Below, piece after piece: positions 14,336-18,927 of a stretch of 44,440 bases of DNA; the first letter of the stretch is position 1, and every line of letters starts with the position of its first letter. The translations under genes were made by a program, and so were the position numbers. The stretch is from Clostridia bacterium. Lineage in GTDB: Bacteria > Bacillota > Clostridia > Christensenellales > CAMQZB01. Location: assembly GCA_045579195.1 (NCBI GenBank), contig JAZNLR010000018.1, forward strand, positions 1 through 44,440. Direction: 5' to 3'. The notes beneath the pieces are model-generated. The model had not been told where the DNA came from. It was given only the letters and a program-made list of their open reading frames with translations, and searched no databases.

Positions 14336-14470
14336 TTAGACCGTCAACGCCTTTCTTCCTTTTCTGCGGCGTGCAGCGAGAACGCGGCGGCCATTTGCCG
14401 TTCTCATTCTCTGTCTAAATCCGTGCACTTTGTTTCTGTGTCTCTTTTTCGGCTGATAAGTTCTCTTCAT
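14336..14470 (-). CDS. rpmH: 50S ribosomal protein L34 (44 aa, below the ORF-track cutoff)
   Basis: Manual translation [51 protein letters not shown]. Confidence 0.98.
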
Positions 14471-14557
14471 GTTTCTATCCTCTCCGTTTCAATAATTTTC
14501 TAAGTTTTCGTTCTTTCAATGGATTTTCCGCATAACAATCCATTTTCATACCATATC

Positions 14558-14586
14558 ATTATATCTTTCGAGCCCTCAATTGTCAA
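14558..14586 (-). promoter_or_regulatory. Consensus sigmaA promoter of rpmH
   Basis: Minus strand TTGACA-17 nt-TATAAT. Confidence 0.8.
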
Positions 14587-14665
14587 GTCTTTGCGCGCTC
14601 ATTTTCAGTTTGACACCCGTAAAATTCGGGGATTTCCCCCGTTTTTGCGGTGCTGTCTGCGGTTT

Positions 14666-15553
14666 TTAGCGCGAAATGATGTCAAAAATGCGGTCGAGGT
14701 CATCGCTGTTATAATAGTCGATGACGATCTTGCCCTTCTGTTCAGAGCCGTTGATGGTGACTTTCGTTCCAAAATAGCGTGTGAGACGCTCGCAAAAATC
14801 GCGAAGCTCAATGGACTGCTCCGGCTTTCTTACCTTCTCCTTCGGCTTCAAAAACTCCTTGACAAAGCGCTCAAACTCACGAACGGACATCTTTTTGTCA
14901 AGACAGTGATGCGCAAGACGCTCCTGATCCCGCCTGTTTTCCACGACGACGAGGCAACGCGCGTGCCCTGCGGAGAGCAGATTCTTTTCAATCAACATCA
15001 GAACCTCGGAAGAGAGGTTCAAAAGACGCAAGAGGTTGGCAACGGCAGGGCGGCTCATACCAAGCGCTTCCGCAACCTGTTCCTGCGTGTAATCAAACGT
15101 CTCCATCAAAGAGCGCATTCCTCTTGCCGCTTCCACGGGGTTGAGGTCTTCTCTCTGTAAGTTTTCGATGAGGGCAACCTCTTTGACCGTCTGCTCGTCA
15201 AAATCCTTGACGATCGCAGGGATGGTCTCCTTTTCTGCGATGCGCGCTGCCCTCCAACGACGCTCGCCGGCAACGATCATATATCCGTCGTTTGTGGGTT
15301 TGACAATGATGGGGGAAATAACACCGTGGCGCGCGATAGACGTTGCAAGTTCTGCAAGTGCATCACGGTCAAAAATCTTTCGCGGCTGATCCGGATTGGG
15401 ATAAACTTTGATAATGTCCAGCTCGACCGGGCCTTTGTTGTTCGTTTTTTCCTTCTTTTCTTGCTCTTTTTCACCGATTGCGCTTGCGTACTCCGCTTCT
15501 GTTTCGCCAAAGAGCGCCTCCAGCCCTCTTCCTAAACCTCTTTTTCCTGCCAT
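14666..15553 (-). CDS. parB: Chromosome partitioning protein ParB/Spo0J
   Basis: GLGRGL, NPDQPRK, AGERRWRAA, LIENLQREDL, HTH SRPAVANLLRLL. Confidence 0.96.
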   Translation of the reverse strand: MAGKRGLGRGLEALFGETEAEYASAIGEKEQEKKEKTNNKGPVELDIIKVYPNPDQPRKIFDRDALAELATSIARHGVISPIIVKPTNDGYMIVAGERRWRAARIAEKETIPAIVKDFDEQTVKEVALIENLQREDLNPVEAARGMRSLMETFDYTQEQVAEALGMSRPAVANLLRLLNLSSEVLMLIEKNLLSAGHARCLVVVENRRDQERLAHHCLDKKMSVREFERFVKEFLKPKEKVRKPEQSIELRDFCERLTRYFGTKVTINGSEQKGKIVIDYYNSDDLDRIFDIISR

Positions 15554-15595
15554 AAAATCCTCCTAATTCCCTTATCTTTCGGTGTTTTATCCTAC

Positions 15596-16715: not shown

Positions 16716-16744
16716 TTGACACCCATTTTCTGTTGTGTTATACT
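16716..16744 (+). promoter_or_regulatory. sigmaA promoter of rsmG (probably leaderless transcript)
   Basis: TTGACA-17 nt-TATACT with extended TG; ATG follows the -10 after 6 nt. Confidence 0.7.
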
Positions 16745-16750
16745 TTGACT

Positions 16751-17470
16751 ATGGAACAAAAAAACTATCAAGACCAAGAAATTTTCAAAGAAGAGGCAAA
16801 AAAACTCGGTGTCACAGTCACAGACGAACAATTTGCCAAATTCTGCACATATTATGAGTTTTTGGTCGAAGAAAACGAAAAATATAATCTCACGGCAATC
16901 ACAGAAAAGAACGAAGTCTTTTTAAAACACTTTTTAGATTGCATTTCAGGTGCACCTTTGTTTTCAGAGGGTGCAACCGTTGCAGATGTCGGAAGTGGCG
17001 CAGGTTTCCCTGCAATTCCTCTGAAAATCGTTCGTCCTGATCTTAAGATCACCTGTATGGACGCACTTCAAAAGCGCGTCAACTTCCTCAACGAGCTGAT
17101 TTCACGTTTGGAGCTAACAGAAATCACAGCGATCCATCAGAGAGCAGAAGATGCCGGAAGATCTCCTCTTCGTGAAACCTTTGACTTCGTCACGGCACGC
17201 GCAGTGTCAAATTTGTCCTCCCTTTTAGAATATACTTCTCCGCTCTGCAAAAAAAGTGGATTTATCTTGGCATATAAGGGTGACGCAGACGAAGAGATCG
17301 CAGCGGCAAAAAATGCACTCTTCCTCTTAAAATGCAAAATTGCAAAGAAGATACAAATTGTCATTGATGAGAACGTTTCAAAAAGAACGTTGCTGTTAAT
17401 TGAGAAATTTGACAAGACTCCAAAGCTTTACCCACGCGGAAAAGGAAAAGAAAAAAAATCACCGCTTTAA
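16751..17470 (+). CDS. rsmG: 16S rRNA m7G527 methyltransferase RsmG (GidB)
   Basis: YNLTAIT, KHFLD, DVGSGAGFP, RAED, TARAV, YPR; start at MEQKNY. Confidence 0.96.
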   Translation: MEQKNYQDQEIFKEEAKKLGVTVTDEQFAKFCTYYEFLVEENEKYNLTAITEKNEVFLKHFLDCISGAPLFSEGATVADVGSGAGFPAIPLKIVRPDLKITCMDALQKRVNFLNELISRLELTEITAIHQRAEDAGRSPLRETFDFVTARAVSNLSSLLEYTSPLCKKSGFILAYKGDADEEIAAAKNALFLLKCKIAKKIQIVIDENVSKRTLLLIEKFDKTPKLYPRGKGKEKKSPL

Positions 17471-17800
17471 TGTGGAAAAGTGTGGATATGTGGACAAAAG
17501 TTTTGTTAATTTGTTGATAAAACTGTGCTTTTTACATTTATCGACAAAAAATTATCTTTTAAAAAAGAAAACTTTTGTAAAGAAGTGTGGATAACTTCAA
17601 AGAAAAGTTGACAAAAATTTTTTATTTTCCACAGAAAAATATCATAGGTTTCCTTGCAAATCAACCCTTTTTTTGGTATAATAAAGCTAGAAAAAATCTA
17701 AGGTTTTCGCTGTTTTTCACTTTTAAAATTTTGGTGAAAAAATTGATTTCCACAAATCCACGCTGCCTATAACTACGACTGTTAAAAGAAAGAATATATA
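17471..17800. other. Chromosomal replication origin oriC
   Basis: Perfect DnaA box TGTGGATAA at 17586-17594; 1-mismatch boxes at 17471, 17481, 17489, 17512, 17538, 17625; tandem boxes plus GC spacer and trios ATTTCCACAAATCCACG-CTGCC-TAT-AAC-TAC-GAC at 17746-17779; AT-rich, upstream of dnaN, at the gene-strand switch. Confidence 0.88.
17654..17682 (+). promoter_or_regulatory. sigmaA promoter inside oriC, oriented toward dnaN
   Basis: TTGCAA-17 nt-TATAAT with extended TG. Confidence 0.65.
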
Positions 17801-17823
17801 GAACAAGAAGGAGGATCAAGAAA

Positions 17824-18927
17824 ATGAAATTGATCTGTGACGGATTGGATATTGCTGATGCAATTGCAAAAGTTTCCAAAGCAATCAGCGCCCACACGAT
17901 GAATCCGATTTTAGAGGGAATTAAAATGCAGGCAATGGGAGATCATCTCATTTTGACTGCAACGAATTTAGAGTTGTCCATTGAAGTAAAGATCAACGCA
18001 GAAGTTCTTCAGGAAGGCCAGACGGTTGCTCCCGGAAAGTACTTCGGAGATTTCGTTCGCAAGCTGACGAATGAGAGAATTATGCTCACTGCAAGCGATG
18101 AAAATCGTTTGAGCATCAAATATATGGATTCGGAAGGAACACTCCAGTGCTTCAATGCAGATGATTTCCCAAAATTGACCAAGATCGAAGAGGGAGAGAT
18201 CATCTCTTTGAAGAAAAAAGACTTAAAAGACATCATTTCTAAGACGATTTTCTCGGTTTTAACAGAAGACACGCGTCCGATCTTGAAAGGATGCCTCTTT
18301 GAGATCAAAGATAACACGTTGACTGCCGTTGCAATCGACGGATATCGCTTGGCAATGGCAAAAAAAGAGCTTTTGAAGACAACGAAGGATATGTCGATCA
18401 TCATTCCTGCGACTTCTTTGAGCGAAATTTCCAAGTTCTTGAGCGACACGGATGAGGAGATCAACCTTTATTTACACAACAACACGTTGATGGTTGAAGT
18501 TGACAACGTCGTTGTCATCACGAGATTGCTCGAAGGTGAATTCATTAAGTACCGTAATATCATTCCGAATGAGTTCTTGACAAGCGTTGTCATTGATAAG
18601 AAGATGTTTGATTCCGGTCTTGACCGTGCTTCCATCGTTTCAAGAATGCTGAAAAACAATATCGTAAGCTTTGATATTAAGGAAAACCTCATCACCATTT
18701 CTTCTGTTTCTGATATCGGAAAGATGAAAGAAAACATCAACATTAAAGAAGAGGGCAAAGATCTGCAGATTTCCTTCAACCCGAGATACTTCCAAGAAGC
18801 AATCAAAGTTGTTGATGATGAATTCATCAAAATGCAATTCAACACCAACACTTCTCCTGCTGTTATCACGCCGGTTGAAGGAGATGATTATCTCTTCTTG
18901 ATTCTGCCGATACGTTTGATGAATTAG
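17824..18927 (+). CDS. dnaN: DNA polymerase III beta sliding clamp
   Basis: PILEGI, ATNLEL, RPILKG, AIDGYRLA, RLLEGEF, FNPRY, LILPIR; SD AGGAGG. Confidence 0.97.
   Translation: MKLICDGLDIADAIAKVSKAISAHTMNPILEGIKMQAMGDHLILTATNLELSIEVKINAEVLQEGQTVAPGKYFGDFVRKLTNERIMLTASDENRLSIKYMDSEGTLQCFNADDFPKLTKIEEGEIISLKKKDLKDIISKTIFSVLTEDTRPILKGCLFEIKDNTLTAVAIDGYRLAMAKKELLKTTKDMSIIIPATSLSEISKFLSDTDEEINLYLHNNTLMVEVDNVVVITRLLEGEFIKYRNIIPNEFLTSVVIDKKMFDSGLDRASIVSRMLKNNIVSFDIKENLITISSVSDIGKMKENINIKEEGKDLQISFNPRYFQEAIKVVDDEFIKMQFNTNTSPAVITPVEGDDYLFLILPIRLMN

Follow-up and report, generated by a model that had tools for sequence, protein, structure and literature searches.

The sequence analyzed here (the window) is a 44,440-nucleotide stretch, contig C18 of a Clostridia metagenome-assembled genome (MAG) designated G000 (order Christensenellales; 1.48 Mb, 158 contigs, 92% complete, 2.86% contamination). 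It carries a putative chromosomal origin of replication (oriC) in the 353-bp spacer between rsmG and dnaN (17471-17823). Genes were called with Pfam profiles and with NCBIfam equivalogs at their cut-offs, DnaA boxes were counted at one mismatch or fewer unless stated otherwise, and parS was taken as a 16-nt palindrome. Both profile sets returned the order that a first-pass annotation had read from the letters alone: rpmH, parB and parA on the minus strand, three parS sites, then rsmG, seven DnaA boxes and dnaN, with both of these genes on the plus strand. The features of the locus are as follows.

14336-14470, minus strand: rpmH, ribosomal protein L34 (Pfam Ribosomal_L34, E = 6e-22)
14666-15553, minus strand: parB, Spo0J-type (ParB_N, HTH_ParB and ParB_C domains; TIGR00180, 186 bits)
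15596-16396, minus strand: parA, Soj-type ATPase (AAA_31, E = 7e-69; CbiA)
16507-16522, 16582-16597 and 16655-16670, no strand assigned: three exact parS palindromes (0 mismatches) in the parA-rsmG spacer
16733-17470, plus strand: rsmG, 16S rRNA m7G527 methyltransferase (GidB, E = 3e-52; TIGR00138, 166.6 bits against a cut-off of 99.5)
17471-17633, both orientations: cluster of seven DnaA boxes, one of them perfect (17586-17594)
17654-17682, plus strand: putative promoter (TTGCAA, 17 nt, TATAAT, extended TG; 10 of 12 consensus positions)
17746-17754 and 17754-17762, plus strand: tandem DnaA boxes 1 (two mismatches) and 2 (three mismatches), overlapping by one base
17763-17767, plus strand: 5-nt GC cluster (CTGCC) separating the tandem boxes from the trios
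17768-17808, plus strand: DnaA-trio run and candidate AT-rich unwinding element
17824-18927, plus strand: dnaN, sliding clamp (three DNA_pol3_beta domains; TIGR00663, 293.9 bits against a cut-off of 137.65)

The rsmG gene, present once in the genome, fills the position usually held by dnaA, and dnaN is likewise found as a sole copy at this single locus. The window has no dnaA, in agreement with the earlier observation that none of its open reading frames (ORFs) resembles DnaA; the only Bac_DnaA and Bac_DnaA_C matches of the genome lie on another contig, C46.

Seven of the window's 11 DnaA boxes fall within 163 bp, and the first (17471-17479) begins one base past the rsmG stop codon (17468-17470), directly behind the gene as initially described. 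The window-wide total is unremarkable (5.69 expected; 4 of 100 shuffles reach 11). The clustering is striking: none of 20,000 shuffles of the spacer reached seven boxes, the maximum being three. This is the densest box cluster in the 1.48-Mb assembly, every other 250-bp stretch holding at most three. By the rule cited in PMC7561715, at least three closely spaced boxes point to an oriC, and the spacer holds seven. Three boxes within 250 bp also occur at G000:C84:1185-1282 and G000:C65:44473-44576, and nowhere else. The rpmH-parB and parA-rsmG spacers contain no box at this threshold.

For comparison, five relatives of the same family (G001-G005, from three other genera, G001 and G004 both of genus g2) were set beside G000. 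Since these genomes are kin, agreement among all five is counted as one inherited state and not as five events. The distribution of boxes bears on whether a bipartite origin persists, with rsmG replacing dnaA as the looped-out gene between two box clusters. The position, orientation and rough role of rsmG are indeed those of a spacer gene upstream of an oriC2-like region, and Clostridioides difficile needs both origin halves for melting in vitro (PMC7561715). On the other side, the parA-rsmG spacer is free of boxes in all six family genomes, and all boxes of the window in the spacer region lie downstream of rsmG. The hallmarks of the canonical bipartite layout are also missing: dnaA does not stand between box clusters, and parB and parA separate rpmH from the origin. 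As there is neither an rpmH-dnaA spacer nor a second box cluster, the origin appears continuous, and we regard a persisting bipartite arrangement as highly improbable.

Beyond the box cluster, the spacer contains a candidate unwinding module. According to PMC8287927, such a module consists of a DnaA box with no more than two mismatches, followed by a weaker box in tandem, up to 16 nt of spacer and three or more trios with a central A. Positions 17746-17779 read ATTTCCACAAATCCACGCTGCCTATAACTACGAC, which comprises boxes with two and three mismatches, a 13-nt spacer from box 1 to the trios and four central-A triplets (17768-17779); after one break, five more triplets extend to 17797. A spacer of 13 nt is the commonest in the basal unwinding system (PMC8287927). 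The AT-rich stretch that follows the trios runs into the dnaN ribosome-binding site, and GC content is 0.28 both for the whole spacer and for 17770-17829, a composition that would fit an unwinding element.

This module is tied to the rsmG-dnaN spacer throughout the family. A strict pattern search of 33 loci (435,242 bases, both strands) gave seven matches: one in each family genome (6/6), always in the rsmG-dnaN spacer, and a seventh upstream of dnaN in G013. Over the whole of G000 there are three matches, the other two being on C60 and C111. In an alignment of the six family genomes (A1), the register is invariant for the box cores, for the spacer and, in trios 1-4, for the central A, and the relatives' modules are cleaner than that of the window, for example TTTTCCACATTTCCACACCCCCTACTACTACTACTAT in L008.

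The putative promoter at 17654-17682 stands between the boxes and dnaN and points through the module to that gene. This fits a different role for the cluster, namely a DnaA operator or titration site for dnaN (and for rsmG read-through), with the origin itself located elsewhere, for instance near dnaA or within the 8% of the genome missing from the assembly. Incompleteness of the MAG favors such a role as well, and so does a pair of convergent boxes downstream of dnaA on C46, described below. It is opposed by the module, confined to the spacer in each family genome in the 33-locus scan, by the lack of any other cluster of more than three boxes in the 1.48 Mb, and by the GC skew and the state of the dnaA locus.

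The cumulative GC-skew minimum of the window lies at 17.5 kb, at the rsmG-dnaN spacer, and falls within 500 bp of the spacer in four of the six family genomes (G000, G002, G003 and G005). In G003, a single 104-kb contig carries both dnaN and dnaA at a distance of 38 kb. The cumulative skew of that contig reaches its minimum at 15-16 kb, within the rsmG-dnaN spacer, and clearly not at dnaA (52.7-54 kb), through which the skew remains positive without a turn. The skew check proposed with the first-pass annotation thus came out in favor of the spacer in the window and in three relatives, the two genomes of genus g2 being ambiguous.

The missing dnaA has moved. One intact, full-length copy lies on C46, divergent from recF (recF to the left, dnaA to the right), with DnaA_N, Bac_DnaA and Bac_DnaA_C domains and a TIGR00362 score of 520.9 bits against a cut-off of 343.9. 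The whole-genome search with Bac_DnaA and Bac_DnaA_C found this dnaA and no other, away from dnaN; dnaA, dnaN and rsmG are each single-copy, all three and recF pass their NCBIfam equivalog cut-offs, and a second dnaA-dnaN locus was not found. Of the two fates initially proposed, relocation or loss, the intact single copy refutes the second.

Nothing about C46 resembles an origin in skew or module: its GC skew has no turn (positive in 14 of 17 one-kb windows), and the unwinding-module pattern has no match near dnaA. The only boxes next to dnaA are a convergent pair, one perfect and one with one mismatch, 5 nt apart at 7559-7581 of locus L003 (G000:C46). They lie 260 nt past the gene, within an AT-richer spacer of 634 bp, and may represent a leftover of an old dnaA-dnaN spacer or a DnaA-binding site. 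They are not conserved, as the 700 nt downstream of dnaA contain no box in four of the five relatives and one in G003. With the skew minimum at the spacer and no turn on C46, a mere operator or titration role for the rsmG-dnaN cluster is improbable.

Relocation had been expected to uncouple both the dosage and the autoregulation of dnaA from the origin, and both expectations are weakened. In G003 the 38 kb between dnaA and the origin would hardly uncouple dosage. The recF-dnaA promoter region holds one or two DnaA boxes in G002, G003 and G005, so that autoregulation may persist there; the corresponding 160-bp spacer of G000 has two-mismatch sites only.

The arrangement is shared by the whole family sample. 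All five relatives have parB and parA on one strand followed by divergent rsmG and dnaN, with 3-8 boxes in the rsmG-dnaN spacer; the comparison of synteny called for earlier thus gave the same break in five of five genomes and a canonical order in none. All five also carry the divergent recF-dnaA pair elsewhere in the genome, and the DnaA of C46 is 51-55% identical to theirs, a range like that of other proteins.

This conservation bears on the possibility of an artefact, either a chimeric or misjoined contig or a dnaA-bearing C46 from another organism. Such an origin for the layout could be suspected from the fragmentation and contamination of the MAG, from the low GC content of 16-21.5 kb (0.34-0.40 against 0.49 for the genome) and from the many foreign contigs that pile up on parS and the 5' region of parA. 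However, the same order is present in five independently assembled family genomes. In addition, an independently assembled 6512-bp contig of a ~97% identical strain (run X1; 74 differences in 2609 bases) covers 16343-18951, which takes in the 5' end of parA, the parS sites, rsmG, the boxes and all of dnaN, and two other studies supplied short contigs across the rsmG/box and box/dnaN junctions. C46 and C18 have equal GC content (0.506), and the drop at dnaN is common to the relatives. The odd joints seen at 16.3-16.7 kb are attributable to contigs of other organisms sticking to the conserved parS sites and the start of parA. Because the order is kept in the family and an independent strain bridges rsmG, boxes and dnaN, misassembly, which had been named as a possible refutation, is very unlikely, and an artefact of either kind is barely credible. 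The layout is a fixed family trait, not an assembly artefact.

The box cluster, the module, the skew minimum and the family synteny together support the compact single-part origin between rsmG and dnaN that was proposed at first sight. The 353-bp spacer is very probably the chromosomal origin, a continuous DnaA-dependent oriC attached to dnaN and equivalent to the oriC2/incC half of the usual Firmicute origin, with dnaA relocated. Several points weigh against this conclusion. Its support consists throughout of sequence anatomy and skew. The module of the window is degenerate compared with those of the relatives, the best box having two mismatches and the trios being broken after four triplets. 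In G001 and G004, for which the skew was computed on 16-kb pieces only, the minimum is not placed at the spacer. The missing 8% of a 158-contig MAG may hold another box cluster. Finally, box clusters beside gid/par genes can be transcriptional operators rather than active origins: at oriCII of Pseudomonas aeruginosa, in the gidAB-parAB locus, the boxes are reported to regulate operon transcription (PMC13438810). That site resembles the present one in placing a box cluster next to gid and par genes, and differs in that the cluster here is accompanied by an unwinding module and coincides with the skew minimum.

If the spacer is the origin, initiation may proceed as follows. DnaA, made from its distant gene, would occupy the cluster of seven boxes (17471-17633) and the tandem pair (17746-17762); from the latter, a DnaA-ATP filament would grow onto the trios at 17768-17779. 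This filament would then open the AT-rich DNA that immediately precedes the ribosome-binding site of dnaN. A DnaD-domain protein and a DnaI/DnaC-like protein, encoded 8 kb to the left, would load the helicase, and the three parS sites 1.1-1.3 kb away would load ParB beside the origin. These likely helicase-loading genes, whose orientation is opposite to that of their neighbors, are found 8-10 kb to the left of the origin: a DnaD-domain/DnaB_2 protein (7609-9234, plus strand) is followed by a DnaI/DnaC/IstB-like AAA+ protein (9285-10232, plus strand).

The partition genes form a chromosomal ParABS system by composition, with a ParA ATPase, a three-domain ParB and consensus parS near the origin. 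Three exact parS sites in the window compare with 0.02 expected, and none of 100 shuffles reached three. The sites are spaced 75 and 73 bp apart, the whole assembly has no other parS at one mismatch or fewer, and their distance from the DnaA-trios is 1.1-1.26 kb. The early estimate of ~1 kb between parABS and the unwinding site is therefore correct for G000. As a family trait it fails: in the five relatives, none of the parA-rsmG spacers contains parS at three mismatches or fewer (5/5), and none was found at one mismatch or fewer in the 16-20 kb fetched. ParA is 70-75% identical to that of the five relatives. A survey of 80 ParA loci with 3-kb flanks returned parA-parB only in 74 and parA alone in two. 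Three had dnaN-rsmG-parA-parB (taken as G002, G005 and G003, and so not independent), and one (L093) had rsmG and dnaN in divergent orientation.

To place the layout within the class, dnaA and dnaN were scored as adjacent when they shared contig and strand and dnaN started no more than 2.4 kb past the DnaA ATPase match; the tally was made by eye. The rnpA-rpmH-dnaA-dnaN context is described as conserved in Firmicutes and clostridia (PMC7561715), and the first-pass annotation had likewise assumed that Firmicutes almost always keep dnaA beside dnaN. This is true of the class outside the window's order. In a sample of 97 genomes from other orders of Clostridia, 93 had both genes (G102, G103 and G124 had neither, and G134 was unscored for dnaA), and the two were adjacent in 90 of the 93, four times with a gap of 1.4-1.9 kb. 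The three exceptions all belong to family f51.

Inside the order the assumption does not hold. Among 40 relatives, 38 had both genes (G023 had no true dnaA match and G026 no dnaN), with 21 adjacent and 17 apart. One further member of the order, G113 from the class sample, is also apart, giving 18 of 39; within its family f32, G036 is adjacent. The window's order is thus a hotspot of dnaA-dnaN separation.

The co-directional rsmG-dnaN arrangement is found in all six genomes of the window's family and in none of the 12 split genomes outside the family for which flanks were fetched, none of which has dnaA upstream of dnaN in those flanks. The 21 adjacent genomes exclude this arrangement by definition, and G023 and G026 stand outside the count. 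Other split layouts vary: recF and dnaA are divergent with dnaN converging on dnaA in G024 and G040, rpmH and dnaN are divergent from rsmG in G012, and G008 keeps the divergent rpmH-dnaA pair with dnaN-recF moved. A looser module scan and box counts in the 12 genomes gave a mixed picture and no general rule. More boxes lie upstream of dnaN than of dnaA in G012, G015, G016, G024, G039 and G040, and the reverse is seen in G008, G018, G025 and G030. Module-like matches upstream of dnaN occur in G012 and G013, the latter with four boxes at each gene, and G032 has none at either gene.

These counts allow a broader, tentative proposal that we hold to be possible without favoring it: the order would have broken the rpmH-dnaA-dnaN block repeatedly (18/39 against 3/93), and in the window's family the result would have collapsed to a self-sufficient, continuous origin of ~350 bp that travels with dnaN. 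In that case the oriC2/unwinding-module half would by itself suffice as a chromosomal replicator in a Firmicute, with no need for either the dnaA gene or an upstream box cluster in cis, and the origin spacer itself would be a recurrent rearrangement breakpoint.

On the left of the locus, rpmH heads a leftward run rpmH-rnpA-yidD-yidC-jag on the minus strand. The remaining neighbors are listed below.

13907-14251, minus strand: rnpA (Pfam)
13665-13904, minus strand: yidD (Pfam)
12570-13631, minus strand: yidC (Pfam)
11610-12563, minus strand: jag/KhpB
16716-16744, at the start of rsmG: promoter-like site (TTGACA, 17 nt, TATACT)
18990-19018, after dnaN: terminator-like hairpin

The start of rsmG may be the in-frame ATG at 16751 instead of the TTG at 16733. 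The promoter-like site at 16716-16744 ends 7 nt before this ATG, so that rsmG may start there on a leaderless or near-leaderless mRNA.

Right after the terminator-like hairpin of dnaN, a 522-aa ORF (orf522, 19163-20731), preceded by a strong promoter-like site at 19038-19066, occupies the place of yaaA/recF in the canonical layout. Its GC content (0.36) is the lowest of the region, and it matches no Pfam or NCBIfam profile. More broadly, a GC trough is centered on the origin (16000-21500), with 2-kb windows at 0.34-0.40 against a genome mean of 0.489. Third-position GC content (GC3) is 0.39 for rsmG, 0.33 for orf522 and 0.51 for dnaN, compared with 0.60-0.72 in flanking genes. As 16-21.5 kb ranks in the lowest ~1.3% of 2-kb windows, rsmG-oriC-dnaN-orf522 was considered as a recently transferred foreign island. 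This was rejected: dnaN is also GC-poor in the relatives, 6-11 GC points below parA/parB in five of five, and DnaN and RsmG are 42-55% identical to those of the relatives, a level comparable to that of DnaA, RecF and ParB. The shared low GC content of dnaN makes the trough look like a family trait and not the mark of recent transfer.

No description of this layout in Clostridia and nothing on Christensenellales oriC was found in the literature searched, which did not extend to supplements such as the per-genome data of PMC8287927 and the indicator-gene tables of PMC10225481. The layout has a practical consequence: software that locates origins by taking dnaA as the indicator gene would point to the wrong place in this family and across much of the order, where dnaN would be the better indicator. 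It also matters for the study of initiation, since origin work in Bacillus subtilis and C. difficile assumes a bipartite rpmH-dnaA-dnaN layout. A family that keeps only the dnaN-proximal half would be a natural experiment on minimal cis requirements, on dnaA autoregulation in relation to origin proximity, and on ParABS beside the origin in relation to initiation.

Among the closest known systems is oriC2/incC, the dnaA-dnaN spacer of B. subtilis and C. difficile, as described in PMC8287927 and PMC7561715. In both cases the element lies directly upstream of dnaN and combines tandem boxes, a GC cluster, central-A trios and an AT-rich stretch with extra boxes upstream, and the trio runs of the relatives, such as that of L008, closely resemble the C. 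difficile run quoted in PMC7561715. Unlike in those systems, the upstream gene is rsmG and not dnaA, which is found on another contig or, in G003, 38 kb away.

A second parallel is provided by Escherichia coli, in which oriC lies ~42 kb from dnaA, and in which rsmG, there called gidB, follows gidA. The E. coli oriC is placed in another gene context (PMC4285127), named as gidA-mioC in PMC10225481. Like the spacer described here, it is detached from dnaA and stands beside a gid gene of the conserved origin neighborhood (gidA/mnmG); the neighbor gene differs, and E. coli lacks the link to dnaN.

The general layout is also known from cyanobacteria, in which origins beside dnaN and away from dnaA are described as the rule, and for which an ancestral origin in the dnaA-dnaN spacer followed by translocation of dnaA has been proposed (PMC4009838). 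The likeness is one of layout only, a box cluster tied to dnaN with dnaA not adjacent. It concerns another phylum, the upstream neighbor here is rsmG with parABS within 1.3 kb, and the layout is exceptional in Clostridia, other orders of which have the two genes separated in only 3 of 93 genomes. As dnaN-linked, dnaA-distal origins are already known from cyanobacteria, the spacer does not represent a new kind of system. In all likelihood it is a naturally occurring Firmicute origin with no dnaA in cis, from an order whose dnaA-dnaN linkage is unusually unstable.

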